From Rhizophagus irregularis (Eukaryota), in NCBI RefSeq assembly GCF_026210795.1, contig NC_089434.1, positions 1,612,001 to 1,676,000 of the forward strand: a DNA stretch of 64,000 bases. Reading direction: 5' to 3'. Position numbers and translations under genes: made by a program. The number at the start of each line of letters is the position of its first letter. Positions within the stretch are counted from its first letter, which is position 1. The notes beneath the pieces are model-generated. The model searched no databases, had not been told where the DNA came from, and saw only the letters and a program-made list of their open reading frames with translations. Shown in pieces: positions 5,845-60,042 of this stretch.

Positions 5845-8225
5845 TTAAAATCCATCTAAAGACAAAAAAAATAACATATCAGTAAATTAATTAATTTGCT
5901 AAGTTTGATTTTTCTATTTTATTTTAAGAACTTACCATCAGGAATTTCCAATTCATCTTGTTCATTCGAATGAAGATTTGGATTATTATACATTTCGTCA
6001 TCATCTATAAGAAATTAATAAATAAAATTAAAAAAAATATATAATATTGATATTATAATTGCAACATTTTTACCATCAATATTACTAATATTTTGTCTTT
6101 TCGTTTTTCGTAAAATTAATTCTTTTTCATCGTCTAAATTTTTAATTAAAGTCACATTTAATATACAATTTGCAAAAATGATGCATTATTTTTTTGCTTA
6201 CCATTAATATCAATATTTTTTCCTTTTACTTGTTTTTGTCGTCAGAATTTTTTAAATAAGAATCGTTAGTTTTAATAAAAAAAAAAAATTGAAATAGTGA
6301 ATAACTTTATTCATTTATTTACTCACTATTTGAATTTATTTGCAACATTTTAAATTCATTGGGTAATCTTTCACTATCACCTAGAATTGAAAATGCAAAA
6401 GTAGATTTAATAATAATTTCGTTATTTTCAAAAATAAGTTCAAATCATTTACCTCTGAAAGTATTAATTATTTTTGATGATTTAACGCTATTCCGCTCAT
6501 TTGATTTATGAAAATCATCGACTAAAAACAAATATCGATCGAGTTATTAAACATCAATATATAATTAATTCAAAATTGTATCGTTAATAAATACTTACTA
6601 TTGTTAGGAATATTAAAGTCATATGATTTACTATGAGATGCTATTATTTAAAAATAAATTATTTTAATAATTAGAAATATTAATTTGCCTTCTATAATAA
6701 TTTAAATTAGAAAAATGACAATCTATTTAAAACAATAAAAAAAATTTATTAATAAATTATACTTAATACCTTCTGTTGAATTTCTTGATTCAAGCAGATT
6801 TTCAAAATTGTGAACTTTACTTATAAATAATCTTTTACTTGTATAATTCGCTTCTAAATTATCAATTTCTTGTTGAAATAATTCATCTGGCATACTTTGA
6901 TAATATAAATTAATTTTACGTATTATTTTCATAAGTGTACTAATATCAGGTCTTTTTAATGGATCAGCATCCCAACATTTTTTCATTAAATTTTTATATT
7001 CTAACGGAGTTTCTGACACAATTTTTGGTCTTACACCATTAATTATATTTATTGCGAGATCATAATCATGTTCATAATTTATAAATGGTGGTTGTCCAGA
7101 TGAAATTTCCCACATTAGCATTGCAATACTATAAATATCAGATGCATAAGTATATTCTCTTCCATCAATAACCTCTGGTGCTATGTAAGGAAGATTTCCA
7201 TATATACTTGTTGAAGATTTATTAGCAGGTCCACAAAATCCAAGATCACTAATACACCAGCAATCATTATATTGTGAATACAATATATTCCCAGAATGCA
7301 AATCCCTATGAATTGCTTTCTCAAAATGAATCGAATTTAGTGCATTAGTTATTTCAAAAGTAATTCTAATTCTTTCTTTCCATGTAAGTTGATTATGATA
7401 TTGTTGTAAATATTTTCTTAAATCTATATCCATTTTATATATTACAAGCATATAACTTCCATTTGTCATATTTTGTGTTAAACCAAGACATTGAACAATA
7501 CTTGCCCATTTATTGCCTATAGTCAAATGTGACACAGCCTAAAGACAATATTTATCAAATTGTCAGTGTTAATACGAGAAATTATCTTAATTTTATAAAA
7601 ATTTATAAAATTTAGAATAAATTATACAAACCTCTTCAAACCAACATTGATTTGCACTTTCAACATCTTCTAATCCTTTAAGTATTACTTCTAAAGATTC
7701 GTTGGTTCTTACTAATTGTTGATTTTTGGAATCCCATTCATCATAATTTCCATTAATCCAGTCTGCTGTATAAATTTCAGAGAATCCACCTTTTGTTAAA
7801 TAATTGACATTTTCTAAATTATTGTATGGGATCCATTCAACTATATTATTCGGCATGAGTGATTCCATTTGACATTTCTGGATTAAATTATCAATATCAT
7901 CATTTCCAGATGTCCAATTTGAAAAATTTTCTTTCAAATAATTTCGAACGCAATATTCACAATATAATGTAGCTAAACAATTTTGGTTACAATTTTCACA
8001 AATTCTTCTTGTACCAGAATTAATCATAACTTTATCTCGATCATAATTTCTAGTTAAATCTCTTATTGCTTCAGTTTTTTCTTCATTTGTAAGAATTTTA
8101 TCAGCAAGAACTGTTTGTTTTCTAAATTCGAAACGTTTATGTATATCATTATGAATATTAGTATCTATTAATGTAAATGATCTACTATTTGTTGCATAAA
8201 TTAATTCATATCGAAGAGTGGACAT
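5845..8225 (-). CDS. Tyrosine-kinase-like (TKL) protein kinase, copy 1, multi-exon
   Basis: Exon 1 8225-7632 (CENC..C..CEYC motif, KGGFSEIY, VILK); exon 2 7538-6770 (HRDLHSGN, DLG, APE, DIYS, KRPD). Several small GT-AG exons follow, ending ...DGF-TAA at 5845. Confidence 0.9.
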
Positions 8226-8510
8226 AATGTAATTAATAAATTAAAGGAAAGAAAGAATTGTGTTTCAAGTTCGGTCACTCCAAGATAAATTAGTAAATGC
8301 AAATTGTAGATCAAAACTTGTATCACCATATGATTAAATTCTGTGAAGGCGCAGTATCGACGCCTCTAGTATTTTAAAAGTTAACAGAAAATATAATTTA
8401 TGTGGCAAACTTTTTTCTTTACTTAATAAATAAATATCATTTAATATTTAACTTCATATTAATTAACATTTAATTTGACGAAAAAAAAAAAATTTTAAAC
8501 TTTCATTTAA

Positions 8511-12301: not shown

Positions 12302-14619
12302 TCAACCTAAAGATAAAATAAATAAATTAGTTTTAAATTGTTTTAAAAAGAAATTTTTATTTTATTTTAAAAATTTTACCATCGAGAATTTTCAATCCAT
12401 CTTGCTCTTTTAAAAGAAGATTTGGATCTTTATATATTTCGTCATCATCTATAAGAAAAATGAATAAGCAAGAATTAAAAATAGTAAAAAAAAAATTATT
12501 TTATTATTATATAAATTTCACCTACCATCAATATTAATATCTTGCTCTTTTTGAATTATTTCTTTTTCGTCATCTAAATTTTTAAATGCGCCACGTTTAA
12601 TAAATGAAAATGATATAATGATAATTCGTTCACTTATTTACTTACCATTTGAATTTATTTGCAACTTTTTAAATACTTTAGATAATCTTCTACTGCCAGC
12701 TAAAATTAGGATTTTGAATTAATGTTAAATTCAATTTCAATTTATTACTTCTAATATATAATTAATACTATTACCTCTAAAAATATTAACTACTTTTGAT
12801 GATCTTCTACCATTCTGCTTATTTGACCCGTCAAGATCATTAACTGAAAACGAATAATATTAAAGTTATAAACATGATTGTTATGAAAATAATTCAACAA
12901 TATATTATTTAATACTTACTATCATCAGGAATGCTAGAATCATTTGATTTATTGTGAAATTCTATGATCAAAATAAGTGGTTTAAAAAAATTAAATTATT
13001 ATAATAATTTGATAGAGGGCAAGTAATTTTAATTTATACCTTCTTGTTCTTCTATATAATTTAAATGAAAAATGATATTAGTATATAATTTATTTTTGAA
13101 TTAATAATAAAGATATAAAGTTATACGCTTATACCTTCTGTTGCATTTCTTGGTTCGGGTAGATTTTCAAAGTTATGAATTTTACTCGTAAATAGTCTGC
13201 TACTTGTATAATTTGTTTCTAAATTACTAGCCTTACTTATTTCTAAGTTATCGCTTTCTGATTGGAATAATCCATCTGACATATTTTGATAATCAAAATT
13301 AATCTTTTCTATTTTTTTCAAAAGTGTAAAAGCATCAGGCCTTTTTGATGGATCGGAATCCCAACATTCTTTCATTAAATCTTTATATTCTAATGGAGTT
13401 TCTGGTACAATTTTTGGTCTTATACCATTGATAATATTCACTGCAAGATCATTATCATGTTCATAATTTATAAATGGTGGTTGTCCGGATGAAATTTCCC
13501 ACATAAGAATTGCAATACTATAAATATCAGATGCAAAAGTATATTCTCCTCCAATAAGAACTTCGGGCGCTATATAAGGAAGATTTCCATATATACTTTT
13601 TGATGGTTTATCAGCAGGTCCATAAAATCCAAGATCACCAATATACCAATAATCATTCAATTGTAAATATAATATATTTCCAGAATGTAAATCTCTATGT
13701 ATAACTTTCTCTTTATGAATATAACAAAGTGTAAGAACTATTTCATAAGCAATTTTAATTCTCTCTTTCCATGTAACTTTTTCGTGGTTTTGTTGCAAAT
13801 ATTTTCTTAAATCTATATCCATTTTCGCCATCACAAGCATATAATTTTCATTTAATGGATTTTGTGTTAAACCATAACATCGAACAATTTCTGTCCTTTT
13901 ATTACTTATAGTTAAGTATGATTTAGCCTAAATGACAACATATTATTGTTAATAGAAAAATCTTTTAAATTTTATAAATGTAAAGTTAAAATTATAATTA
14001 TACCAACCTCTTCAAACCAACTTTTACTTGCACTTTTAACATTTATTAATTTTTTAAGCACTACTTTTACCAATGGACTTTGTATTTCAGGTCTTTCAAT
14101 TCTTTTTAATTGTTTTTTATTAGAATCCCATTCATCATATATTCCACCAATCCAGTCTGCTGTATAAATTTCGGAAAATTCATCTTTTATTAAATATTTA
14201 ATATTTTTTAAATTGCTGTATGGGATCCACTCCACTATCATATTTGGAGCAAGTACTTCCATTTGACATTTCTGTATTAAATTATCAATATCATCATTTC
14301 CAGACGTCCAATTTGTAAAATTTTTTTTTAAATAATTTCGAATACAATGATCACAATATAATGTAGCCAAACATTCTTGGTTACAATTTTCACAAATTCT
14401 TTTCGTACCAACATTATCCATAACCTTATCTCGATCATAATCTTTAGTTAAAAATCTTATTGCATAAGTTTTTTCATCATTTGTAAGAAATTTATCAGTA
14501 AGAACGGTTTGTTTTTTAATTTCAAAGTGTTTGTGTATATCATTATAAATATTAACATCTATCAATGTATCTGCTCTATTTATGGTTGCATAAATTAATT
14601 CATAACGAAGAGTAGACAT
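12302..14619 (-). CDS. TKL protein kinase, copy 2, multi-exon, with altered glycine-rich loop
   Basis: Exon 1 14619-14008; exon 2 from 13927 (HRDLHSGN, DLG, APE); 12-nt micro-exon 13051-13040; further small exons to TGA at 12302. The Gly-loop reads IKDEFSEIY instead of KGGFSEIY. Confidence 0.88.
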
Positions 14620-15216
14620 AATTTTAATTAATGAGAAAGCATGAATGAATAATGTTTAAAATTTGTTCATGCAGACTCCGAAATAAATTGATAAAAAATG
14701 CAAATTGTTGATCAAACCTCGAATTGTACCACCACCAAAAAATGAATATTGCGACCTTGAGGCGCAGGACTTGATAAAATAAGAAATACTTTTTGCTTCA
14801 GCCATCAAATACGATTACCACATTGAAATATGGTATTTTTGCAAACACAATTTATGTGTGACAAATTTTGATTTCTATATTTAATATATTTAATAAATAA
14901 TTAAATCAATACATTCAATACATACTATTTTTATAATTTGACGAAACAAAATCTAAACATTCAATGATTTTCAAATGATTGGCTAATAAATTAATTTACA
15001 TTTTTCATTAAAAAATATTCATTATTTTAAAAATTAATATAAGCATGGTTGATATTTGATAAAAAAAAAGGCCCATATTTCTAGGTAATAGTTTCAATTT
15101 GAATTTATTTTAAATAAAAATAATGAATATTAAAATTTTTTTTTAAAAAAAGATTCATCTTATTATTATTTTTATTTAAAGTCGTATCCAAAGTTGGAAA
15201 AACTTTGTAGAATTTA

Positions 15217-29546: not shown

Positions 29547-30462
29547 TTAGGTACGTCGCTTAAGCGCATGCTCTTTTCGAAAATGCTTCATAAATATGTG
29601 ATTATCAGTAAAAGTTTCCGCACATTTAGGACAGGCAGATCTAGTATCATCATCCGATGATGATGAACCTGAATATTGCTGTAATCATTTCATGAAATAA
29701 ATAAATAACTAAAAATGAACTCCAATAATAAATATAACATACTTTTGAGATAGCCTTTTCAATCATCTCTACATCCAAGATGAATCCTGGAAGAATCTGC
29801 TGACCATTAACAGTGGTATTCATATCTCTCCATCCATGTTCATAATGATGAACAGTATCACTATTTTCGTACCTTCTCCACGAATGGATATTTCCCACCA
29901 GTTGGTTGTTTTCATCTTGGCCGATGCTAACTAGAAATCCTAACTCTACAGCTGTTCCCTGTGCAAAAATTTTATTTCTGAATCTATCGTCAAATACTTG
30001 AAATTGTGCTTCAGTTTCAATAAAATCAACCTCAACAATGAATATTGGAGTGAAGGGTTGGCCTTGAAAGGTCCAATTTTGTAAGCTGTTCAAATTACGG
30101 TCTGTTTGTTTTGGAGTGAAAGAAACATCTGGTGCTAGAATGGTTCTCTGTCCCCCAACATTAAAATTAAAGCCACCTTGCGAAAAGGTAACGCCTCCAT
30201 TTTGGCGAGTTTCGATGTTCCAGTTAGCTAACTGTCTCCCAATTTCTAAGACAACCTTTCCTCTTGCGTATGGAGTCTGTGGCATTGGGATTAACTTTCC
30301 ATTTTCGTATTCGAAGAGGTTAACTGGTTTTCCATTAAGTTGTATAGTGCGAGTCTTAAGTTGGTCGTTTATGTACTCGAACTCTTCAAATGTATAAACC
30401 TTCTTAAGGTCTATAATTTCGAGATCTATTTTCTCACAGTAAACTTTTGATATGTTCGCCAT
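29547..30462 (-). CDS. Uma2-family (PD-(D/E)xK fold) endonuclease with a C-terminal C2H2 zinc finger, two exons
   Basis: Exon 1 30462-29743 has FEYENGKLIPMP, SQGGF, LAPDVSF and PIFIVEV (Uma2 pattern). After a 64-nt GTATGT..AG intron, exon 2 29678-29547 encodes CPKCAETFTDNHIFMKHFRKEH then stop. Confidence 0.85.
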
Positions 30463-31682
30463 GGTTGTATGGTTGTAGGAATAGAGTACGAAAATTTTTT
30501 TAATACTAAAAAATTCGTTTTTATGACTTTACGTTACACAAGTGAATAAGCCAATGACTTGCTCCTGTTGAAGATGTAAGTAATCAATCCCCTTACTAAT
30601 ATAGTATCCGATGTATGACGTAATAGCGATCCAAAGAAGAACACCAGCAATGGGAAAAAACTAAAAATGACAAAAGAAAGGCTTTAGATAAGTAATAATC
30701 TCAAATAGTAAATTCTGATATCTTAATAATCACACAGAACACAAGTACAGCAAAAATTATGAGAAGGATAGATAGGATATTGATTAAACTTTTCTTATAA
30801 ATGAAAAAAGAAGACATTGATTAAAAGAAGTGTAGGAAACTTAGGAAACTTTTTTTGAATACTCGTTATTATATATCTTTATTTGATTCTGACATGACAT
30901 TATTGATTAATGCTATATTTCAACGATGCAATACTGCGGTAGAATTTTTTACATACGCCCACGTGATTGTTAGGAAAATTCAAGTTTCCTAAACGGAACA
31001 CGAGTACGGGAACATCTAGCTATAGATTTATAGCAGTTTTAAAGACTTTAGTGATTCTTTATCAACTTATACTAATGAATATCATTCAAGAGAGCATCAT
31101 ACTCTTCGAATTTCTGAGCAGATCGTTAAAGATAAAACCAGCCACATTCGTTACTACTTCTTGATCATACCCGAAATTCTCTGTTAGGATGTCCTTATTG
31201 AGATCATTTAGATTTTGCTATAAATGTTTTGAACAGTCAGAATAAAACAATTTTTATAAAGTGCATAAAATTTATTAATAAACATCTTACTTTCTCATTT
31301 TATCTGTTATTATTCATTTATAATTCCTTTTTTTATATAATTCTTTTTAACTTTGGTATTATTTGAGTTACGATTTTCTCTCTCCTAGCGTAATTTTATG
31401 TTAATAAATTTCAAGTTCGTTAGTAATTATAATATCAATTTCTAATTATCAACCAGTATGAAGAAAAACAACTACTATATAAATATACGGTTCCTAATAA
31501 CAATTCATGATTTTTTTTTCTTGATATTTTCACGGATGATCATTAAAATTAGTAATAAAAATTAAAAATTCCATAAAATCTATCATTATTAGTTAAAAAA
31601 GTATAATAAAAAGTTTTATGATTCTCATGACGCAGTAACTATTTGATACTAAAATTAGTTTAAAAAAGACCAATTCGAAATA

Positions 31683-33300: not shown

Positions 33301-36300
33301 TTAATATAATTTATCATCACTATCATACTCGCTACTAGTTTCACTTTCCTCATTGTTATTGTGATTAAACCCTAAACTTCTTGGTGATTTTACTCCTATA
33401 TTATTATAATTATTTTCTCCTGGAACAAAACTTAATAAAGGTTTAACGTTCGTATTCCGTAATGCTATTGTATGTGCTGCATCAGGTTTTAAATCAATTT
33501 CAAGTAATGTTTTTCCATTTGGTGATAATATACTTTGAACTGGTGCACTCTTTGATAATGGTGCATCTATTTTTAATAATGTTCCCGAAGGATTTTTATG
33601 TGATCTTTGAGTCTTACTCTTAGTTAGTAAAGATCCTTTATTAAATTGTACCCCGTTTTCAATTTGCACCAATCGACCTGTAGGTGAATTATTGGAATTA
33701 TTATTATTTTCATTTGTTGTATCATTATTCTTATCTAATAAAGATCCTTGGCTGAATTTTACAGAAGTATTTAAATTAACAAACGTTAAACTATTCTGAT
33801 CTCTGATGATTCCGACCCCTCCTATAGCTTTACGAAGTTTTTCTCTTTCTTTAGCTTGTTCAAATAATGCATCGTTTGAAGCTAATAGTGATCCTTTCAC
33901 AAATGCTTTACTTTCAGGTTCAACTTGTTTGGGAGATGGAATTTTTTCGTTATAATCTAATAGTGAACCTTCTTTAAATTTTTGATCCCCACTCGATGCT
34001 GATGTATTATTCAATGAATCTTTTATCCCATTGTCTGATTCTTTCTTTTTAAGTCCTGGGTTAGTAATAAGTCTTAGGGAATTATTTTCTATTTTACCGT
34101 ATAATGTTGAATTACGAACATGTTTACGTAGGTTTTCCCATTGGTTAATAGACCTACGTCTTTCCGATACTTTATTATTAGATTCATTTAACTCCGTAGA
34201 ATTCTCGCCAGATTTCTATTCCGTCAAATAATATAAATGTTAAATTAAAATTTCTGATTTTTACTAAGTTATAAAATATATATATAAAAAAAAATATATT
34301 CTGCAAACCTCTGAATAAAGCTTATCATCACTTTTGATGGTCTTTTCAAACCTTTCCGGATATTTAGCTCGTAGCAAGTTATTCTATTAAACGTGGATAA
34401 AACTTTAACATTATAAATTTTATAATATATATAAATTTTATTTTATGAAAATTACCTTAGCAGCTCGAAGACTCAACACCCAGTCTTTCATTTTATCCAA
34501 GTGATCTGCACACAAATAACGTATGTAATCATCTGGATTTTCAAACATTGCAACTTTGTCTTGAGATTTCAATGCAAAAATAAACTTGGTTGGAGATTTT
34601 CTCACGGTTTTTGTAAAAGTATACACATCAAAGCTTGCAAGCGAACAAAGGAGAGTTTCATTATTCCCCTAGTTATAAATAATGTTAATTTTTTTTTTCA
34701 AATAAAGTAATAATTCACAATTTTATTTTTACCTTTGCATCCTTGCAATGATATACAGTTCCATCTCTGATAAAAAAGTGTCTTTTCTGCCATTTATTTT
34801 TCTTCACCTCTAAATGTAGAGATCCAAACATGGGAGGTACAGCATTTTTGAATCCCTAAATAATGAAATTGAATTTAATAATTCTAGCGAATAAATTATT
34901 TAACATAAATAAATACATACTCCTAATGTCAGACAATTCCTGTTTATGTATTTTTTTAAAACAAGTGCATTTTGTTTATTTGGTTCCCAATTTCCGATGA
35001 CTGTAGCAACATATTCCCAATCTCTTATCGGACGTTCTAAATAACAAATTTACAATTAATTAAATTTTATAACAAAATCTTGATATCCTAAAAAGAGAAA
35101 TATTTATTATATACCTAAACCATATTCATTAATTACTTCAAATAAAGTCCAAGATTCAGAATCAGAAATTGTTTCATTATCACGGAAATAGTTTAAAATG
35201 TCTAATGCAGTTCTAGTTGCTGTTATTGACAATGTTCTATATTGACGTAAGTTTTCGATAAAGATCTGTGTTGTAAGCTAAAATTTATACATATATAAGA
35301 TTAGTTTAAATTGAGAATAACAATTAACAAGAATGGTGCAGTAAGGACATCACTCACTTTAACTTCAGTGATTTTCGCTTCCTCTTTTTCAACATGTACT
35401 TCCGCCTACAATAAAATAAACAAATTTAAATACGCTTAATAAAATTGGTACATAACGATTAAAGCCAGGTGATACGCAAAATTTTCGTATAGTTAGGATT
35501 GTACCTTTTCACGACGATAACGAGTTCGAGATTTAGCTCGTTCTCTGTTCTCATTTTCTTGAGTCTTAGATTTAACAACTTCACGTTCTTTTGGTGTTCT
35601 TCCACGCTCTTCTAGTGGTTTAGATTTAACTCTCTCGCGTTCCTCTTGAACTTTTGATTTGGTTCTTCCACGTTCTTCCTCCTCTCGAACTTTTGATTTG
35701 GCTCTTCCACGTTCTTCTTCCTCTCGAACTCTGGATTTGGCTCTTCCACGTTCTTCCTCCTCTCGAACTCTTGATTTGGCTCTTCCACGTTCTTCCTCCT
35801 CTCGAACTCTTGATTTGGCTCTTCCACGTTCTTCCTCTCCTCGAACTTTTGATTTGGCTCTTCCACGTTCTTCCTCCTCTCGAACTCTTGATTTAGCTCT
35901 TCCACGTTCTTCCTCTCCTCGAACTTTTGATTTAGCTCTTCCGCGTTCTTCCTCTCCTCGAACTTTTGATTTGGCTCTTCCACGTTCTTCCTCCTCATGA
36001 ACTCTTGATTTAGCTCTTTCACGTTCTTCCTCCTCTCGGACTCTTGATTTAGCTCTTCCGCGTTCTTCCTCTCCTCGGACTTTTGATTTAGCTCTTCCGC
36101 GTTCTTCCTCTCCTCGGACTTTTGATTTAGCTCTTCCGCGTTCTTCCTCTCCTCGGACTTTTGATCTTGCTTGATCGTGATCATTATCTAGTTCAATGTT
36201 TTTACTAGATTCTCTTCCTCGCTCTTCTAAATTTTCACGGTTCACATTTTCTTTTTCTGATGATTTTTCAACTTTATTCTTAGATCTTATCTGTTCTTTA

Positions 36301-37919
36301 TCTTCAGGTTCTCTTATCCTTGATATCGCTCTTGTACTAGTTACATTAATCTGTGAATCCACATCATGATCCTGAGAGTGTATTCGACGTCCTCCTTCTC
36401 CGTTTTCTCCTCTGTATTTATTACCAAGAACTTCTCTATCATCAGATTCTTTTTCGATTGACTCCGAACGATCATGAACATGCTCAGTTTCTTTTAATTT
36501 ACTAGAATTAATTGAGAAAATCTTGTTATCATTAGAATTTCTTTCCTGAGATCTTGGCCCTTCAGTATGTTCTTTCGAATTTGGTGGTTTAGAAGTTTCA
36601 ATATGATCATCTGATGACTTCTCTTTAGATCCTGAACTTCGATGAGTTTGATCAATAGAATTTCTGTTTCTTTGCGTCCTTACAGGTGAATTTGTAGAAT
36701 TTAATGAATTATCTTCACCTTGTTTATCTAAATTAGTATCTTGAGCTTTTGAATTAGATCTAGATCTTAATGGACGGTTTTCATCATCAGTCTCATATAA
36801 AGTAGATGAAGAGGTTTCACTACCATATTTTGATTCTTGAGTTCTTAAATTTAAACGAAGTATAACTGATTGTTTATCAAAATTAATATCTTGAGCTTTT
36901 GAATTAGATCTAGAACTTAGTGGACGATTTTCATCATCTGTATCATATGATTTTATAAAGGTTTCATTGACCGATTTAATTTGTGATTTGCCTAAACCAC
37001 GACCGGTTGTCGGAGTCCTTTTAATTTTCTTTTTACCAGTTGATAAATCAAGGGATGATGTTGGGGACAAAGTTGGGGAACTATTTTCATTTGAGATGGT
37101 GGTTTTTTGATCATCAACAGCAGAATTTTTAATATCTGATAAATTATTTAATGATTTACTTCTTAATGTACCCATCAATGAACTATAATCACTATCATTA
37201 TCACTTCCTGAAGTATCATCTGATGATGACTCGCTAACGTCATTGTCACTATCACTACTTAAAATTGAGGAAGGATCCATCATAGTCCTAGGAGAAAGCA
37301 TAGAAGAATGTATAGGCATCACAACATCATTAACATTAGCATCTGATAAAGACCTAATACGTTGATAGTTTGAAATACCAAGTGTTTGTGAATCACGCGG
37401 ATGTAAAAGATTATTATCTCGTGGTTTTGATTTCACATTACGAGAATCAACAGATTTCGATTTTTGATGAAGCGAAGTGCTATCTAAATTACGCATTTCT
37501 TTGTGAGAAGCAGATCTTTGATGAGTGTTAAAAGAAATTGTAGGTGGTATTGATAGTACTGGATCGCTAATTATGGGATTGGACGAATCTTCTTTTTTTA
37601 AGCTTCTCTCTATTTCAGATTTTAAATTATACAAGCTATATAAATTTGCATCTAACTCTAAGGGACTATCATTTTCAGAAATAGTATCCGGATTTACATC
37701 ATTCGAGTGTAAAAGATCATCTGAATCCTCTCGAGCAAGATCCTATTTTATAAAAAAACAAAAAAAAAACGTTCAGAATATTTGGTATAATTATTATTTT
37801 CATTTTTATAACCGAAATTCTAGAAAAAAAAAAATTCCAGTAAATAACTAACTTACCGCGGTTAATTTATCAACCTCTTGCTGTAAAAGGTCAAACATTA
37901 ATTCAAGTTGGCCACTCAT
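33301..37919 (-). CDS. Large adaptor protein with long disordered N-terminus and tandem RA-PH domains (Grb7/MRL-like module), about 9 exons
   Basis: Exon 1 37919-37857 and exon 2 37742-35505, then exons encoding WTLFEVINEYGL|ERPIRDWEYVATVIGNW (RA) and GSLHLEVKKNKWQKRHFFIRDG...YLCADHLDKMKDWVLSLRAAK (PH). The last exon has repeated F-x-(K/Q)GSLL motifs and a stop at 33301. Confidence 0.88.
35640..36165 (-). repeat. Coding 39-bp tandem repeat, 13 copies of (R/H)(G/E)EEERGRAKS(K/R)V
   Basis: Counted in the 713-aa ORF translation. Confidence 0.95.
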
Positions 37920-39428: not shown

Positions 39429-41147
39429 TTATAGCCATACTGGTTCATGTACTTGTCCATTGAGTTTATATCTGAAATCAACAATGGTTTCTTTTGCTTT
39501 TTCAAGAAATCCCTTACTGAATCTTTTATCAGTTCCTATATGTAAACGATGCAAGTGTTCTTTTAAATATCTAAATAAAACTTCTAAATGAGCATCAGAA
39601 AAATCCGGTGAATATCGAAATACAAGACTTTTGAGAGGTGCCCTTGATTTAACAATAAAGATCTCTAATGATTTGGCACAAAACCGCCATTGAGCATCAA
39701 TAAACAACTCTTTTAAATTCGATAATTCTTGATTAGCTATTCTTAAAAATAATTCATCCGCAACATCTGGATTTCCAGTCAATTTCACTTTCTCAAGGAG
39801 AGGACATGATGCAAAAAGAAGCATCAACTGTTGAAATTCTCTTCTATCCACATATATCTCAAGATGAACAAGATTCTGACAATAATTTGCGACAGTCGTT
39901 ATAACTTGAGGTATGAAGTTGTGTTCAGGATAATAATATCTTGTTAAAGTAAATGTTCTAAGTGTCTTGCCTGAATGTTGTACTATTAGTTCCGGAAGAA
40001 TGGTTTGATCCCTGAAACAACAAACATTGAAAGATAATTTTGTTAAATGAGGGAAATATGATTGTTCTATCATGTTTACTTCGTTACATTGAAAATTAGC
40101 GTGAGAAAATATTATTTCCCTTAAATTTGTTAAATGTTTCACTTCCGAAAAAATACTCCAATCCTTTACTATCCCTTGAAAATAAAAAATACGCAACGTT
40201 TTCGCTTGTGTTCGAAGTCCTTCCATGATTGATGGTAAAATACGAAATTTACATTTAATAAATTTAATTTCTTGTAAACAATTTTGTACTTTTATCAATG
40301 TTGATAATCTCTTTGCATCCTTTCTACTTTCATCCCTTCCAAAATTTGACATATCAATCACAAGTTTTCTAAGATGATGTGTAATTTTTGATAAAGCATC
40401 TAAAAAATTACTTGTCCAATGAGTAGCCCCCCACGTAAATTCGACAAGTTGTGATAAACAATTCTGAGATCCGGTATAAGTAGGAATTAATAATATTTCA
40501 TTAGGAATTTCATTTACGGTAATCCAGAAAGAAATACTCGGCAAACTAGTACATCTTTGTTTATCCTCTGACCATTTTGTATTCACCATATCTATCGATA
40601 AATGACTTAGATTTGAACAATATAACACTAAAAGTCTGCATAGATCACAAGCCATTTTTTGAAATAATGATTCCGCCCAAGTAATCGATGATGTTGACCA
40701 AGTAATTTCTGAAAAGAAAGGCTTAGAACTACATTGAAAATCCATTAAAAATCGTTGAGATCGAAGATATTCAACGCCATCATGTAAAGCCCAAACTAAA
40801 TCATGTATGTCAAGATGTCGAATGAAATCAGTATATGCAAAAGTTGTTAGAGGTGCCGTTGTCCATATAATCAAGTCTTGAATATTTACTGAACTTGCTG
40901 TATGTTTGTGTGCAAGAATGGTAGTCAGAGTCGCAAGGAATTTTTTTACTTTCATTCGACGTTTTTGTTCTGAACATCGACAAAATTTAGAGCAAGTATA
41001 TAAAAAACGAAAAGGTTTTCTCCATAAAAATTGAACCGCAACTTCACACCAAAGTCTATTAACCAATAAAGCTCCGTGTAAAGATTTTTTATCATGTTCG
41101 AGATTAGTGAATATTTCCCAAAGACAATCACGGTTAAGGGCAGTCAT
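39429..41147 (-). CDS. F-box / leucine-rich-repeat protein, intronless
   Basis: N-terminal LNRDCLWEIFTNL...LLVNRLWCEVAVQFLWRKPF (F-box-like) followed by RNI-like LRRs (CSNLSHL, CQNLVHL, CPLLEKVKL). Confidence 0.9.
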   Translation of the reverse strand: MTALNRDCLWEIFTNLEHDKKSLHGALLVNRLWCEVAVQFLWRKPFRFLYTCSKFCRCSEQKRRMKVKKFLATLTTILAHKHTASSVNIQDLIIWTTAPLTTFAYTDFIRHLDIHDLVWALHDGVEYLRSQRFLMDFQCSSKPFFSEITWSTSSITWAESLFQKMACDLCRLLVLYCSNLSHLSIDMVNTKWSEDKQRCTSLPSISFWITVNEIPNEILLIPTYTGSQNCLSQLVEFTWGATHWTSNFLDALSKITHHLRKLVIDMSNFGRDESRKDAKRLSTLIKVQNCLQEIKFIKCKFRILPSIMEGLRTQAKTLRIFYFQGIVKDWSIFSEVKHLTNLREIIFSHANFQCNEVNMIEQSYFPHLTKLSFNVCCFRDQTILPELIVQHSGKTLRTFTLTRYYYPEHNFIPQVITTVANYCQNLVHLEIYVDRREFQQLMLLFASCPLLEKVKLTGNPDVADELFLRIANQELSNLKELFIDAQWRFCAKSLEIFIVKSRAPLKSLVFRYSPDFSDAHLEVLFRYLKEHLHRLHIGTDKRFSKGFLEKAKETIVDFRYKLNGQVHEPVWL

Positions 41148-41323
41148 TTTTAAAAATACATTGAATTAAATCAAAATTCAGGTCTATAGAAAAGTAACCC
41201 GTGATAATATTTTATTGGCTAAATTTCTCGTGATAAGCTTCCAATCAAGGATGCCACATGTCAAAAACGACACTCATAAAATGGGGACGATTATCAACTA
41301 TCATTCTTTAAAACTAAATAGTA
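41148..41323. promoter_or_regulatory. Putative bidirectional promoter between the F-box gene and TRAX
   Basis: Only 176 bp separate the divergent start codons. It contains ATTGG and CCAAT in opposite orientations and two CGTGATAA motifs. Confidence 0.55.
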
Positions 41324-49377: not shown

Positions 49378-51488
49378 CTATATATCTTCAATCTTCAGGT
49401 CAAGTTCAAGAGCGTATTGTTTAAAACGACCAAACCAAGCAGGTTTTTTATTGATAACAGTTTTCTTTGTAGTGTGAATACTGTAAGTAGTAAATCTTGT
49501 TTCAGGTAAAACAAAGTAAAAACTGATCTCCTCATCTGGACGTGTTATTCCACGAATATACTTTTCCAGGCCACTCTTGACGATAGGATGTCTCTCTGCA
49601 ATAGTCATCTGGAAGAACTTGTTTGTAGGGATAAAAGAATCGAACGACTTATTATTTTTTTGAGTTGGTATGTAATATTTAGTAGTACCGGACGTATTTG
49701 TAGCATCTCCAATATCATCAATGTCACTAAACAACACTTTTTCCATGTTATTCAGTACAAGCCTTGGATCATTCCTTTTGAAGTCTCGATCTATAGGGCG
49801 AACTTTAAATTTTCCTCCACGTAGCAACTTTCGATGAGCAAGTCGCTCAAACATAGTACCTCGGAGTGAACCAAATTCATTCAAATCATCGCTACTATTC
49901 ACAAAATCTAACAATTCTTGCTTGTGTTTTTCAGCAAGTTTGTTTATTACCATTTCGGAAACGTAATCAGACGCAAACTCTAGAATACGTTCACTATAAT
50001 AAGACATTTTATCAGCGAGTTTAGAATCTGTGGAAGTTGCGAGGTCTGCCGAATTCACGAGAGTTGCTGATGTAGAAGAACCTTCAATTTCTCTCCCCTT
50101 TCCTTTATTTTGTATATTTCGTGCCTCTTCCTCTTGACCCGCCTCTTCCTCTTGATCCACCTCTTCTGCTTGATCCGCCTCTTTCACTGGTACATTTGTA
50201 CAGATATGAACGAGATTATGATTAGCACTGTTGCCCGAAGAGGTTTCACCAACAAAATACATTATGCTTTTTTCAACTTCAATAATTGCAGCATCCAGTT
50301 GTTTTTGCGAATTGTAATTGCGAGCATGAAACAAGACAAATCGAGGAATCCCACCCCATTTATAATGCAGGGCCCGAACTTCTTCTTTAGTAAGATGTTT
50401 GAAAATATCAATTTTATCCCTACAAATATCGATCTCTGCAAGAGACCACACCGGCATGTATCGTACATTTATCCCAAGTGAATCAAACGTTTTATAGTAT
50501 GTCATCTGGGGCGAACAGACAAGAATAGTTTTTCCACGAAATTCCATCGGTTCCCGAGCGTCTACAATATACCAAGTATCATTTTTTCCTAGGTAATCCT
50601 TGAATAGGTGAATATCGTCTACCTTACTACAGTAAACTTTGTCTTCGCTGAAAAGAATCGGAGATCTGTGATGTTGGTGGTATACGACCGTTCTATTGGC
50701 TTTTGCAATAATATAAAGCAAATAATAACCGAAGAAGGTTTTCCCAATCCCCGGGTTTCCGGTAATACGCCAACGAGACCTATTACTTTCAAAAATTATC
50801 TTGGACAAATCGAGATAGCAATCGCGGATGAATATAGTAGATATTGGATTTCCGTAATCGTCAACGCCCAGAAAATAGGAAGCATCATTGGACAAATTAA
50901 GGACATTGTCATCTATTGTCGCCTCCTTGAATGCTTTCCAAACCTTTTCAAGAGATTCATTATCATAGTTATCACTTTGAATTTCTTCTTCATCATCAAT
51001 TTTTCTTCGTTTGTATCCTAAATACTGGAAAATATTAAATAATGAACGGTTATCAAATAGTCAAGCCAAAATGCGTTGACAAAATCTATTACGACTCATT
51101 TACAGCAGTGGGTTGATCTACAATAACGTGAACGTTTTTTGGGAGGGTTTGACGGTTTGATGATAAGAAGCAGGAAAGAAAAGCACATTATTGGCAAATA
51201 TGAGAATGAAATTTACTTACGTCCTTTATATTCATTAATCAAATTTACAATCATTGTAGAAGCTCCAAGAGGTATTCCATAAGCTTTAAGACCTTCGTAC
51301 GTTAATTTAAAAAAGATCGAGCCTTTGACTTCTTCAGCTGTTAACGTGTCTATGTGATTATCAATGTCGCTTAACCTCTCTTTCAAAAATAAATTAAGTT
51401 CTACGGCATTATATCCTTTCACTTCCTCGAATGTCGGAAGAGGAATAACAGGAACACCAGTGGAGGAACTTGCAACGTTAGACGACAT
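49378..51488 (-). CDS. Crinkler (CRN)-like effector: SAM header + P-loop NTPase + restriction-endonuclease-fold domain
   Basis: Exon 1 51488-51221 is SAM-like. The main exon has KRRK, FIRDCY, Walker A ITGNPGIGKT, WYIVDA, YMPVWSLAEI and WGGIPR, then RGTMFERLAH...SFDSF...FFQMT. This matches the NTPase+REase architecture known for Crinkler-RHS proteins. Confidence 0.88.
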
Positions 51489-52300: not shown

Positions 52301-54131
52301 CTAAACTAAGTTAACCGACCTTCTCCTTTAGTCAAAATACTGTTGAACTAAAAAAATTAAATTAACCTCCCCAAAATAAATAAAAATTTTTAATGGTTAT
52401 TTTGCTAATAACATTTGATATCGTGGTACACCAAGTATATTTTTTGTAAAAACTAAAATTTACTATCTACGATTTTAGCAAAAAGCCCATGTACACGAAA
52501 ACTATCCTAAAAAAACAAAGCAAAACAAAATTTTACCTAAAAAAACGATAATACTATTTCTTTTCTCAATCTTCTTTACTTTTTGAGGTCTTTCTACCTG
52601 CCTATTCCATATTCACCCTCTTCGTCTTGTCTTCTTTTGCCAAACGGCTCGCCATCTTCCTATTGTTAGTGTCAATTTTCGCAATCTCACATTCTATTAA
52701 TTGTTTTGATAGCCGATCCCAAAAGTTGCGATCATCTACTCCATCACGTCACCATCATTGAACACCGACACTTTATGTATTCAACCACGTCCTTCTCTGA
52801 TATCTTTTCTTTATCGAGAAGTCTTGACGAACGGTCCACTCATCCATTCCGGGTCCTTATTTTTCGACTCCGGATCACGTGATTGATGATCGTACCTAAA
52901 GTCGCCTGTAACTTTTCCCGCTTCATCAGGTTCGACCGACGAATGTAATACTTCTCTAGTTAAATTCTTCTCCTTTTCCAAGAATTCGCCCAGCGCCCAT
53001 TCGTGACGGTCTTGGATCTTTTCCGAATTTACCGATCCAAAAGATTCCCGTTTGAATAAAGCTTCTCTTCTTTTTGTTCGAGGACTAATTTCTTCTTCTC
53101 CAGCTGCTCCTTTACTTCTTTGAAAGTTCGAAATGACCATTTTGTTGTATCCCCTTTTTCTGCAACCAGAGCTCCAGATCCTTTTGCGACTTAAAATAAG
53201 TTGACACTTTCCACGGTCGATGCTTTTATTACTTTGAGAACGCTATTTTGGGATTACTTATGATTATTTTATTACGTTACAATCGTTACATCCAGATATT
53301 TTATTAAGATAGAGTTATCTTGGCCAGTTCTGACGGAATTCTATAACGTAAGTTGACCTAAATAATGATTCGATATGATATTTTTTTTTTAAAAAAAAAT
53401 CGTTTACACATGTGATAAATATAGCATTGTCGAGCTATAGCAAAAAAAAAGAAACCATAATGATATTAATAAAAATATAAATTCAGATAATATTTTAAAT
53501 TTGATGGATCGATGAACTTTGAAAATGATACGGAAAAACTTTTTCAGTTAGAATAAAAATATGAAAAGAATTAAAACCTTTCAAACGCCCATTAATTAAT
53601 TTATGAAATTCACGCACAATTAAGTACTGAAAAAAATTAAAGCATTAGAAAATCGAAAAAAAAAAATAGGGAAACACTTATTAAATATTATTTGGAGATT
53701 TTGTTGATCCGAGTTCTAGTGGCGGTTTTGGTGGTTCTTGGCAACGGTTCAAGTGATAGTTATTATGGTGATGAAGACAATCCGTATGACGGTTCTAACA
53801 ATTCAGGTAGCGATTCTGATAGCGACTTTAATTCTAGTTTTAATAAAACAAATACATTTACGAGATTTGAAGATAAGTATTTAACTCCGGGCGCAAGTTG
53901 CCGCCGTTCAGTTTAAATTACAGAATAGGTACATAAACAATTAATCATTTATAAGAATATACATCAGATGATCATCCAATAAATAAATACATTATTTTAA
54001 TTTTTTACTTTTAAATAACTTTTTACAAGTGTTACAAATTTTGATATCTAAAATAGTTCTGTGATTTTTTTTTTTTAAATAATATTATATACATTATATA
54101 CTTTTTACTATTACTAGTATTTACTAATTAA

Positions 54132-55334
54132 TTACACGTCAAGTGTTTTGACAGCATGTTCGTAGAAATCCATGTAGATATAGTATTTTGCAAGTAGATT
54201 TTTTAATTCAGTTTGATTATTGAGATTACTAAATTCATTAAAATTTTCCTCTTTTTTCGAGATATTTAATTTTACACTTCTATCATCTTTAATTTTCCCC
54301 AATTCTTTAAGAAGTTTCGCTCTATCATGTTCTATGAATATAAAGCGTGAGACAAACCCGAATGGGTCCATCTTGCCACGACCAAAAAGAAAGACGAAAA
54401 CTCCCCAAATGCTAATGTAACCACCGATATTACTAAAAAGTTCAAATAATGTAAGGGATGGTTTTAGAACCTGTGTCATAATATGTGTCGGTGAAGAGAG
54501 TATAATTCCAACCAAATTTTCATCTTTGACAGTAGAATCAACATGACCCTTAAAAGCCATCTGAAAACTTCGATATGTGGTTCCATTTAAAACTTTAGTG
54601 CGTGTCTCTGTATATTGTAACATACTCATATTTTTTAATGTTAAAACATCTACATAACTAAATTTGTTCCCTTGAGGAATGGAGCGTGACCAGTCTATAT
54701 CATTGTTGGTGTCACCCATGAAAAATATAACATCAGAAGATTTAAAGACTAGAACAAAAACCCCAGCAGCATTAACCTCCTGCTTCAAAAATGATGGGAA
54801 CAATGTACCATTAAAAAATTCACAATCACCATGTTCTCCAGAAATAGTAGTAAAAACTCGTGATTTGATTAAATTAATGAATGGGGCAGAATTATTTTTC
54901 CTGACATAAGTATCAAAACTGACATAATATTTTGCAATTACAATTTCGAGTTTAGCGTCAGGATTCTGAGTGTTAAGACAAAAGAGCATAGATGGAAAAG
55001 ATTTATTCTCTTCCAATGTCATGGATAACTTGGGAGGATAAAATATCATTTTACGAACATTATATGAAGTGACTGCTACAAAACCGAAAGTCAGAAGTAA
55101 GAAAGTAATTATTTTAAGTATTCTTGTGGGAACGCTTCGAGTATTGTCATCAATGAAATAATTTATAAATTGTTGACGGAATTGGGGAAATTGAAAGATT
55201 CGTACGATGAATGTAAGAATTATAATAACTACAAAAATTATGGCTACTATTACTGCGAACACACCAATTTTGCCATTGAGAGTCTCAAGCCAATCATATT
55301 CAACAAAATGACCAGAATCGAGAGAGTCATCCAT
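54132..55334 (-). CDS. Intronless membrane protein with DEG/ENaC/ASIC-like signatures (putative ion channel subunit)
   Basis: Hydrophobic segments at about aa 24-46, 73-92 and 296-318; ectodomain about 200 aa; motifs FPSMLFCLN, HGDCEFFN and FELFSNIGGYISIWG. Confidence 0.7.
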   Translation of the reverse strand: MDDSLDSGHFVEYDWLETLNGKIGVFAVIVAIIFVVIIILTFIVRIFQFPQFRQQFINYFIDDNTRSVPTRILKIITFLLLTFGFVAVTSYNVRKMIFYPPKLSMTLEENKSFPSMLFCLNTQNPDAKLEIVIAKYYVSFDTYVRKNNSAPFINLIKSRVFTTISGEHGDCEFFNGTLFPSFLKQEVNAAGVFVLVFKSSDVIFFMGDTNNDIDWSRSIPQGNKFSYVDVLTLKNMSMLQYTETRTKVLNGTTYRSFQMAFKGHVDSTVKDENLVGIILSSPTHIMTQVLKPSLTLFELFSNIGGYISIWGVFVFLFGRGKMDPFGFVSRFIFIEHDRAKLLKELGKIKDDRSVKLNISKKEENFNEFSNLNNQTELKNLLAKYYIYMDFYEHAVKTLDV

Positions 55335-57764
55335 ATTGTTAATTTTTGTTTTTAATAAAAAAAGGTTTTATAATATTTATAATATTTGAAAAAATTGGAA
55401 TAACTAGAATATTTATTCTATTTTATTTTTATTTATTTTATTTTTTTTAAAATATTTTGTTATTTTCTGTAGCAATGATTTTTTTTTCAGTTCTAAAAAG
55501 TTTAATTTATAAAGAATTCAACAAATAATTTTTTTAACAAGATTTTATGAATTGTTATTGTTTTGATAATAACAGATAATAACAAAATCGATTTGAATTT
55601 GCGTAACTAATTGTTCTCATTATAATCATTGTAAGCATGTTATGATACATGGGGTAAAATATTATCCTTAAATGTATGTATCCTTAAATGTATGTACATT
55701 TAACAACCTGTCGTTTTTCCTAGGATAAAATGATTTTTACCAAAATGTTATATTGGCGGATCTATTTATGTTACGTTGGCAAATCTATTTATATGTTATT
55801 GCGGATCTTTCCTTTTAGTGTTTGTTGTGAAGTTTGATTTGGACGCCATCATGCAATGTCGATCAAATTTTCTTTAGTAAGTCCGATTTTTTTTTAGTAA
55901 GTCCGATTCTTACAATATTTAGGTTAGTATGAAAAAATCTGGTGTAAACAGTATTATCCTTTAATAATTGTTGAATCGCAGCCTTTTATTTATGAAACAC
56001 GAAGAATAATAAAAATCTTGGTAGAGTTTAATATACCATAAGGAGTAGCAAGCATCAAAAGTTTAAAAAAAAGAAGTTTGATCGTAATACAAATGATATG
56101 ACAATTATTAATAATAGGAAAACCTATTGTTTGATAAAGTTTCTTTGTATGAAAGTACATTACTGTATCTTTCTTTATCAGTTATACCCGAATTATGTAG
56201 TATTGCAATTTTCTGTATTTTGGTTTTTTGCTATTGGCGAGTATATAGTAGAAAGTGAGTAGGTTTATTTATAATAGGCATTTTTTCTTTCAATTTGAAT
56301 AACTGTACTGTACGTCGTTTTTTTTGTGACGGAGGCGTGTGAATTGAAATTATTATCGTGGTTCCATTGTATTTTATCTTATGATTATTATGTAATTTTA
56401 TTGTAACGGTTTCTGAAGTAATTTTATTAAGACATTTTATATACTTTTAATTATTTTTTTATAACCTTTTCTTTCCTTTTTTTAACTTAGACTCGCAAGT
56501 ATATGATGATTGAGTAACAATTTAAGATTGACATTTTAGATAACTGCGTAAATACAGTAGTGCTTGCTAATTAATTAATTAGTAAATAGGAAATAATTAT
56601 GATATTTGGTAATAAACAGTTTTAATTATATTTTCTCATCAGTATTGATATATTGATAATATCTTTCAATTATTTCAATTATTGTATTATTTATAATTAT
56701 AAAAAAGAAAAAAAATTGATTGAAAAGATAAAATTACCTTTTCGTCTAATTTAATAAAAAGATCTTCTAACGGTATTGGAACCCAATATGGAAATGTGGT
56801 ATCGAAATTTTTCGAAAAACATTTTTTGAATGGTCTTTTAAATAAATTGTAAATAAATTTTACAAGAAAAATTTTTATGTATCGCGTGGGAATTGGAAGT
56901 AACATATTTAATGACTCTTATTTTAGAAATATTTTATTGAGGTTGTTCCTGAATAATAATTATTTATGTCATTTAATTTAAAGTGTGGTACAAAAATAGT
57001 CTTTCGCGTTACTTTTGCATGTAATCAGTCAAATTTTTTTTTGAATTAATTTTCTTTCACATGAGTTTTTTCGGCAATCTGTGATGACAAATTTAATAAC
57101 ATTTTCCCCAGCGTCACTATAAAAAATTTAAATACTTTAAATAGATAGCCTTCTAAAAATGTACTATTTAATAATCATAATTTTATGAATTTTATAAATT
57201 GAAACACTGTTATCAAAATTTTTTATTTATTTTATTGACTAATTATAGCGCTAGAAATTTAATAAATTAGTTAGTATTATATATAAGAAAATTTTCATTT
57301 TAAATAATATATAGAATTGAGTTATTCTTTTTACATAATATATACTTTTTTTGGTTTACTGATTTTACAAAAAATTTCAGTATGTAAAAAACAAATCATA
57401 GTCACGAAGTAACGATAATATAATCACTACTATTATCAATATTTTCCATTCTTTTAATTCTTTCGTCAAAGTAAAAGAAATTATTTATAACTTTACACTT
57501 AGATGTTTTTTTATTTTTAGTTACAGTATTTATTTATAGAAAATGTAAAATTTATTATAGCGATAAGCATGTTTAAAAATAGTTTATTATGTCTATTTTA
57601 AACTTGTTTGTGTAATTGTTGTTACACTATAAATTTAAATTTTTTTTTCTTTCAAAAAAAAAAAAAAAAAAAAAAATTCATTTTTCCAATTTATATTTGT
57701 ATTTATTTATATAATAAAATAAAAAAAAAGTTTTCATTTAAACCTTTATAATAAAAATTGCATT

Positions 57765-60042
57765 ATGTCTACTATTCGAAGAGAATTAGTTTATGCAACA
57801 GCTCATAGAGCATATTCGTTAATTGATTATAATATTCACACTGACATACACAAACAATATGAATTTCAAAAACAATTTATTCTTGATGATAAACTTCTTA
57901 CAGATGATGAAAAAACCGAAGCAATAAATTACATAACTGAAACTTATGACCGAAATAAAGTTCTTTTTAATTCAGGAACAAAAAGAATTTGTGAAAATTG
58001 TAAACAAGAATGTTTAGCTACATTATATTGTGAATATTGTGTTCGAAATTATTTAAAAGCAAATTTTAAAAATTGGACATCCGGAAATAATGATATTGAT
58101 AATTTAATACAGAAATGTCAATTGGAAACATTTGTGCCAGATACGGTAGTTGAATGGATTCCATATAACAATCTAAAAGATATTGAATATCTAATAAAAG
58201 GTGGATTTTCTGAAATTTATACAGCAGATTGGATTAATGGAAGTTATGATAAATGGAATCCTAGTGAACAGCAATTAATAAGATTTGAAAATGAAGAAAT
58301 AATACTTAAAAAATTAGAAAATGTTGAAAGTGCAAATCAAAGTTGGTTTGAAGAGGTGCGTATTTTAAATTATTTTATAAATTGAATAATTTTTGTATTG
58401 ACAATAAGATTCTTAAATTTTTTATAGGCTAAATCACATTTAATTATAAGTAATAAATGGGCAGAAGTTGTCCGATGTTATGGTTTAACGCAAGATTTGT
58501 CAAATGGACATTATATGCTTGTAATGAGAAAAGAGGATATGGATTTAAGAAAATATTTACAACAAAATTATAATCAACTTACATGGAAAGAAAAAATTAG
58601 AATTGCTTTTGAAATAATTAATGCACTTTATTTTATTCATCTTGAAAAAGCAATTCATAGAGATTTGCACTCTGGAAATATATTATATTCACAATTAAAT
58701 GATAGATGGCTTATTAGTGATCTTGGATTTTGTGGACCTGCTGATAAATCATCAAAAAGTATATATGGAAATCTTCCTTACATAGCACCAGAAGTTATTA
58801 ATGGAAAGGGATATACTTTTGCATCTGATATTTATAGTATTGCAATACTTATGTGGGAAATTTCATCTGGACATTCACCATTTATTGATTATAAGCATGA
58901 TGATTATAATCTTGCAATGGATATAATTAATGGTATTAGACCAGAAATTATGTCAGATATTCCTTTAGAATATAAAAATTTAATGGTACAATGTTGGGAT
59001 GCTGATCCATTGAATACAATCTCTTCGGAAAAAAATAAAAAAAATTCATCTATCATATCAAAATATGCCAGATGAATTTTTCCAGCAGTCAAAAGCAGTG
59101 AATAATTTTGAAATAAAAACTAGCACAAATTATATAAGCAGCAGATTATTTACAAGCAAAGTTCATCAATTTGAAAATTTACCCGAACAAAAAAATGCAA
59201 CAGAAGGTATTATTTATGAAGTTTTTTTTTATTGATTAAGATATGATGACGTTGCTAATTTTTTTTTTAATTTAAATGATTATACACATTATAGAAGAAC
59301 AAGAAGGTTAGCTTTTTTATTGTTATTTTATTAATTATTATAATAATTTATAACCTATTTTTCTTATTTTTTAAATAGCATTTCATAGTAAAACATATGA
59401 TTTTAGTATTCCTGATAATAGTAGGTATTTATTGAGTATTTCATTTGATGAAATATTTATTAATCAAATTTGCGTTTTTATAGTTGAAGATTTTAATAAT
59501 TCAAACGATCAGAAGATTAATAAAACATCAAAAATAAATAGTATTTTTAAAGGTAATTTAATTATATATTCAAATTTTTAAAATAATGATACAAATTTAT
59601 CTCGATTTTAGGTGGTAGTAAAAGATTATCTAAAGTATTTAAAAGGTTACAAATAAGTTCAAAGAATGGTAAGTAATACTATTTTAAATTTTAATTGTTT
59701 ACAATATTTATTATAATCTTATTTATTTATTTAAAAATTTAGACATTCAAAATGATCATAAGAAAGAAAAAATGCAACAAATGAAAGGATCAGTTAATGG
59801 TAAGTATAATTTTTTTTGTTATAAATTTTCATTTTATTTTTTGCAATGTTTAAATTAAAAACTTTTGTCCTTTTATAGATGATGATGAAATACATAATAA
59901 TCTAAACCTTCATTCAGAAGATCAAGATGAATTTGAGATTCCTGATGGTTAGTTTCTTAATATTTTTCTTAATATTGTTTGAATAATATCTTAAATACTA
60001 ATTTATATTATTTGTATATATTCTTTTTTAGATGGATTTTAA
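57765..60042 (+). pseudogene. TKL kinase, copy 4; near-intact but frameshifted at about 59013
   Basis: Exon 1 57765-58355; exon 2 from 58428 has all catalytic motifs. The KRPD codons are missing (about 11 nt) after CWDADPL, and the homologous frame resumes as IQSLRKKIKKIHLSYQNMPDE. Downstream micro-exons look intact up to DGF-TAA at 60042. Confidence 0.85.

Follow-up and report, generated by a model that had tools for sequence, protein, structure and literature searches.

Do fungi have ion channels related to the DEG/ENaC family, whose members are usually treated as animal proteins with few protist exceptions? The question is raised by P0001, the product of a gene on the minus strand (positions 54132..55334) of a stretch of 64,000 nucleotides of Rhizophagus irregularis, here called the window (contig NC_089434.1 of assembly GCF_026210795.1, positions 1,612,001 to 1,676,000). 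The gene is one uninterrupted open reading frame (ORF) of 400 amino acids (aa), and a first-pass annotation, made from the letters of the DNA, had read it as a reduced channel of the DEG/ENaC or PAC fold. That proposal is borne out by a predicted palm and beta-ball without thumb and by sequence homology to DEG/ENaC channels, and none of the annotation's proposals is contradicted. P0001 is a minimal membrane protein of predicted DEG/ENaC-PAC fold in a clade with three transmembrane (TM) helices, and its family is a separate fungal branch of the superfamily shared by DEG/ENaC and PAC.

Among the motifs that the annotation had named, FPSMLFC (aa 113-119, nucleotides 54998-54978, with Y99-P100 twelve residues before it) and NIGG (aa 302-305, nucleotides 54431-54420) lie exactly where it had placed them, while HGDCEFFN starts at 54833, the 54830 given for it being the G of GDCEFFN. 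The first is the strand 2 motif with C119 (54975..54998 on the minus strand, as are all features of the gene), recognized by its conservation and by Pfam ASC matches in paralogues; the last is the strand 5 motif with C171 (54810..54833). C119 and C171 are the sole cysteines of the whole protein, and the two ectodomain cysteines are thus the motif pair, as had been claimed; a disulfide between them is predicted. In alignment A1, composed of 27 sequences (P0001 and 26 of its 30 protein matches, with P0002, P0004, P0005 and P0025 left out), C119 is a cysteine in 25 (two gaps), C171 in 26, and G304-G305 is present in 25 (two gaps). Because these residues are kept across A1, the motif matches exceed what chance would give. 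P114 and C119 are invariant in the 40 non-redundant rows of alignment A4 that have a residue there, and C171 is a cysteine in 39 of 39 such rows; the conservation among fungal homologues that had been set as a check is therefore found. The wider family keeps the cysteines less often, in 14 (C119) and 9 (C171) of 19 proteins.

Taken alone, P0001 has no Pfam match at E ≤ 1, no NCBIfam match and no significant sequence match in the Protein Data Bank (PDB), so the relationship is visible only with family profiles and with the predicted structure. Pfam ASC (PF00858) is matched at E ≤ 1 by 14 of the 27 A1 members, the next family by seven. Of ten paralogues scanned, seven match ASC, at positions 13-125 or 398-441, and P0009, 59% identical to P0001, is the only one of the ten to pass the gathering score (26.4 versus 23.6 bits). 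Since P0009 carries a precomputed ASC label, the databases already tag a few family members as ASC. Among the distant proteins, two of 35 match ASC at E ≤ 0.05. Profiles were also searched against 177,635 PDB sequences. The A1 profile reached FaNaC at E 0.085 and the A3 profile at 6.8e-4, with DEG/ENaC chains at ranks 1-4 of 9; A4 matched PDPNaC1 at 9.5e-7 in two stretches; and for A5 DEG/ENaC chains took ranks 1-8 of 10, with FaNaC at 6e-6. No profile matched PAC or Erv41 in these searches. HMMER sets C119 and C171 opposite the corresponding motif cysteines of PDPNaC1 and ASIC5, in aligned stretches none of which is significant by itself. We regard the homology of P0001 to the DEG/ENaC/PAC channels as almost certain.

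The predicted model places a palm and beta-ball core of 12 strands between TM1 and TM2, without thumb and without knuckle, and both palm and beta-ball, proposed earlier as a check on the ectodomain, were found in the fold comparison. The ectodomain feature (aa 99-295, 54450..55040; block predicted local confidence, pLDDT, 69-93) comprises the 12 strands and one five-residue helix; counted over aa 99-294 it has 196 aa, in agreement with the earlier estimate of about 200. The thumb of DEG/ENaC channels is a Cys-rich insert between strands 9 and 10, a place taken in the model by a five-residue turn (aa 248-252, 54579..54593), which, with two cysteines overall, indicates that a Cys-rich thumb is lacking. 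The best Foldseek match is PAC (E 1.8e-11, template-modelling score by target up to 0.57), and P2X is absent among the 50 fold matches displayed. Among viral structures there is one weak P2X-like match (template-modelling score 0.16, root-mean-square deviation 25.7). A prediction of aa 62-345 as a trimer, made without an alignment, scored 0.14 against a mark of 0.32 and is evidence neither way.

Comparison with animal DEG/ENaC channels, namely PDPNaC1 of centipede (9jf7), FaNaC (7yvb, 8on7), ASIC1 (6ave), ASIC5 (9mky) and ENaC (6bqn), reveals a common plan: two TM helices around a large ectodomain, a P-x-x-x-x-C motif after TM1, a 12-strand palm and beta-ball, the cysteine pair of strands 2 and 5, homology from TM1 to strand 2 and from strand 12 to TM2, and N/D0', G3', S/G6' and G10' in TM2. 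In contrast to these channels, P0001 has no thumb or knuckle, a finger nearly gone, an ectodomain of 196 aa and none of the G/SxS, HG and E18'/D21' elements; it has in addition an N-terminal helix (TM0), a TM2 that is shorter by one residue and has FG-xx-K-xx-PFG as its cap, and a conserved cytoplasmic YY helix. With PAC/ASOR/TMEM206 (PF15122; 7ji3, 7jna) it shares the bare 12-strand core without thumb between two helices, an architecture described in PMC7904269 (papers are cited by such numbers), where PAC is presented as similar in structure to DEG/ENaC channels without a relationship in sequence. Neither Pfam scans nor PDB profiles gave a sequence match of the P0001 family to Pfam TMEM206 or to PAC chains; in the ESM Atlas a PAC cluster is a language-model lead, with a score of 0.83 (below 0.9). 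Since P0001 lacks the thumb, G/SxS, HG and E18' that define DEG/ENaC channels, and the TM2 lysine and sequence match that would define PAC, we do not file it as ENaC, ASIC or PAC. Outside animals, DEG/ENaC relatives are also described for Tunicaraptor, Cafeteria and Symbiodinium (PMC10507113).

Regarding membrane topology, Kyte-Doolittle peaks of membrane length occur at aa 25-43 (3.6), 72-90 (2.1) and 299-317 (1.7), and a fourth peak, at aa 189-207, corresponds to two beta-strands in the model. The first peak and a helix in the model bear out the additional N-terminal TM helix of the first-pass annotation; hydropathy, charges and model together delimit TM0 at aa 21-48 (55191..55274). It is followed by a short helix in the TM0-TM1 loop (aa 50-60, 55155..55187, pLDDT about 60), likely cytoplasmic, which occupies the place of the HG re-entrant loop of DEG/ENaC, and by TM1 (aa 68-98, 55041..55133), which in the model spans the segment aligned to TM1 of PDPNaC1 and FaNaC. 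The first 22 residues contain six acidic and one basic residue, and basic residues stand after TM0 and before TM1, R45 being basic in 0.85 of the family rows and R53 in 0.77. Under the positive-inside rule this charge pattern points to a likely topology with the N-terminus outside, the TM0-TM1 loop and the C-terminus cytoplasmic and the ectodomain glycosylated; aa 99-294 carry five N-glycosylation sequons. The cytoplasmic tail (54150..54356, pLDDT 37-60) is modelled as a helix (aa 327-359), a variable linker and an L-x-x-L-L-x-x-Y-Y helix (aa 369-395) that is conserved in the family. The solved channels contain nothing equivalent to TM0; that it supports the pore, or adjusts it to tension in the membrane, is speculation.

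The closest match of P0001 is P0002 of R. irregularis, 99% identical over the full length, and the counterpart in R. diaphanus is 92% identical with the frame intact over 400 aa. Of the 30 protein matches, which are 90% clusters across strains and not a count of paralogues per genome, 25 carry a Rhizophagus name (18 irregularis, three diaphanus and four clarus) and the other five none; the window itself holds one copy of the family. Word-index protein searches gave matches confined to Rhizophagus with the exception of one Syncephalis protein. A search of 1.84 billion sequences with the A1 profile recovered 83 representatives (E ≤ 0.001), composed of further three-TM proteins and of distant proteins, many with two TM helices only. 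These distant homologues, one of which is from the zoopagomycote Syncephalis plumigaleata, have in common the TM2 pattern GG-x11/12-FG-xx-[KR]-h-x-P[WF]G and the C-terminal L-xx-LL-xx-YY helix. The known range of the family is given by that species name and by the ESM Atlas cluster labels: 18 of the 30 nearest clusters have no family, and the three displayed are eukaryotic, mostly Mucoromycota. Below 0.9 (0.86-0.88), the Atlas also lists ciliate clusters with PF27811 (Y80K_N; 43% and 68% of members) and one mostly-Streptophyta cluster, which may lead to additional members of the superfamily that are still hidden. Among 113 pattern matches in metagenome contigs none was confirmed, and phage records gave no family match. 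The homologue P0091, of 902 aa, contains two complete TM1-ectodomain-TM2 units in tandem, which are either truly fused or were merged in gene prediction.

In a FastTree analysis of 33 proteins (midpoint root, no outgroup) the three-TM clade is split off by a branch with support 0.997; P0060, whose record starts after TM1, groups with it. The spacing from GG to FG is 11 in 18 of 19 members of this clade versus 12 in all 16 measurable members of the wider family, so TM0 and the one-residue deletion in TM2 go together. What is particular to P0001 is its place in a three-TM clade with a shortened TM2.

The predicted pore helix, TM2 (aa 296-317, 54384..54449), was numbered by aligning it with PDPNaC1 and FaNaC in HMMER. 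In PDPNaC1 the gates are D372 and G375 (D433 and G436 of cASIC1), followed by G378 and by GAS at 382-384 (PMC12714832). With these roles the alignment to PDPNaC1 puts N302 of P0001 at 0', G305 at 3', S308 at 6' and G311 at 10', in a helix one residue shorter than that of the wider family. Residues were counted over 38 of the 40 aligned proteins, as P0054 and P0059 lack the motif at the end of TM2. Serine at 12' occurs in none and glycine at 10' in 24; an acidic residue stands at 18' in one and at 21' in none; K/R is found at 20' in 35 and at 10' in none. The missing GAS filter of the annotation accordingly holds for the serine, which is lost, but not for the glycine of the belt, kept as G311 after the one-residue deletion. 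The basic residue at 20' is K321 in P0001, within the signature FG-x-x-[KR]-h-x-P[FW]G that ends TM2 (aa 317-326, 54357..54386). The HG motif is absent from all 39 pre-TM1 segments; PDPNaC1 is likewise without a canonical HG (PMC12714832).

The selectivity elements of ENaC/DEG channels are G/SxS, HG and acidic residues at 18'/21' (PMC8536179), and the anion filter of PAC is a TM2 lysine, human K319, seven residues past G312 (PMC7904269). No K/R occurs in aa 296-318 of P0001, hence no PAC-type TM2 lysine. A PAC register derived from the ends of the aligned ranges gave offsets of 7, 3 and 1 and was dropped in favour of the G-to-K spacing. Set against the named filter elements, the residue counts indicate that the outer gate is kept and that both known filters are replaced. 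In the ectodomain, conserved ionisable residues over 52 non-redundant A4 rows are D208 (acidic in 0.93), E243 (0.98), R245 (basic in 0.79) and R255 (0.90), and no conserved histidine was found in the A4 rows. The first-pass annotation had overlooked the absent PAC pore lysine, the basic motif after TM2 and the related Erv41 sandwich in fungi.

We favour the reading that P0001 is an externally gated ion channel, the most probable of those considered here, and it is likely that the protein conducts ions. By analogy with solved relatives, it would form a trimer whose TM2 helices line the pore and cross at G304/G305, with a gate at N302/G305. The cue for opening would come from outside or from the lumen, as protons or a small ligand, although gating by protons specifically is doubtful; a sensing of pH, ions or force, as in the annotation's proposal, is putative. 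Gating could then be a rigid-body movement of the beta-core at the subunit interfaces, as proposed for the thumb-less PAC (PMC8809534), with D208, E243, R245 and R255 as candidate residues. A K321 ring at the cytoplasmic mouth would disfavour cations, and permeation is likely anion-preferring or non-selective rather than Na+-selective. Given the absence of an acidic ring and the conserved lysine at that mouth, Na+ selectivity is, provided that the protein conducts, unlikely, and anion preference or little selectivity is more to be expected. Because TM2 breaks at G318, K321 may face lipid instead of the pore. It is a long shot that early-diverging fungi keep a large bare-core channel family resembling the DEG/ENaC-PAC ancestor and that arbuscular mycorrhizal fungi expanded the three-TM clade into acid-gated anion channels, the lysine ring being a third solution to selectivity, possibly releasing phosphate or other anions into the acidic periarbuscular space.

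Alternatively, P0001 could be a non-conducting membrane sensor or cargo receptor like Erv41/Erv46, signalling through the conserved cytoplasmic motifs and not through a pore. Fungi already have a related beta-sandwich in the lumenal domain of Erv41p (3zlc; ERGIC family), 6% identical to P0001, which makes this a serious rival. Erv41/Erv46 act in ER-Golgi retrieval, and Erv41 is not known as a channel. All sequence links of P0001 point to channels, however, and small residues are retained on the pore face. No ERGIC family is listed in the Pfam scans of P0001, the A1 members or the distant proteins, and the C-terminus has no di-lysine signal (KKxx/KxKxx); we judge the sensor or receptor unlikely. 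A further alternative is a cation channel like ASIC or PDPNaC1, proton- or ligand-gated, Na+/K+-permeable and amiloride-sensitive, but P0001 has no acidic residue at 18'/21' and a conserved basic residue at 20', and without a thumb there is no ASIC acidic pocket (PMC8809534), which leaves this reading decidedly improbable.

The gene might also be a degenerating or silent copy that belongs to a lineage-specific expansion and at present serves no function. Many family records are short, and no reads mapped to 53900-55400 in two polyA runs, while a third run labelled with the same species gave a single read (24-30% of each run read); this expression set had no control gene, so that counts from about a quarter of each run, without a positive control, are no test. 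Of 24 listed runs, 18 contain the stretch or part of it and one (share 0.05) is recorded as RNA; a fourth run, which may be DNA, has contigs over 53900-54868. On the other hand, the frame is intact over 400 aa in P0001 and in its 92% identical R. diaphanus counterpart, and both cysteines have been retained along with the sequons and every family motif, so a silent copy is very hard to credit. The externally gated channel remains the reading we prefer.

A full-text literature search found no description of fungal DEG/ENaC- or PAC-fold proteins, a weak negative as subscription journals were mostly missing. A 2023 survey, which used BLASTp with animal queries and included Fungi, gives no fungal candidate, only holozoans, one alveolate and one stramenopile (PMC10507113); passages of PMC13183375 make no statement on fungal ENaC or PAC, its supplementary orthologue tables could list some, and passages of PMC7935092 contribute nothing to the question. 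The combination of a DEG/ENaC-like sequence with a PAC-like architecture in a fungal family suggests that the superfamily arose before the animal-fungal split and that the thumb, the knuckle and the G/SxS filter were added later. Such a family also provides a minimal channel made by nature, in which to study the gating and selectivity of the core by itself. For mycorrhizal biology the family, expanded and without annotation, supplies candidates for surface channels or sensors in Rhizophagus, a fungus for which ion export to the plant and the perception of soil and host lack a good explanation.

The neighbouring genes give no clue to the function of P0001. Three similar two-part protein kinase genes lie at 57723-59075 (+), 6723-8240 (-) and 13121-14655 (-), the kinase exon of the first matching PK_Tyr_Ser-Thr at E 5e-30; such genes are typical for Rhizophagus, which has an expanded protein kinase family. 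A 560-aa ORF with a P-loop (49378-51060, -), whose nSTAND3 match is weak (E 0.001, below cut-off), may be akin to Crinkler-type P-loop proteins, which are widespread among arbuscular mycorrhizal fungi. An ORF at 29650-30528 (-) has a Uma2-like restriction-endonuclease fold (PF05685, 38.4 bits, above cut-off). A 578-aa ORF at 39429-41165 (-), with no Pfam or NCBIfam match at E ≤ 0.01, looks by eye like an F-box protein with leucine-rich repeats. Finally, tandem-repeat stretches of low complexity at 752-1471 and 35493-37742 give rise to overlapping open frames.
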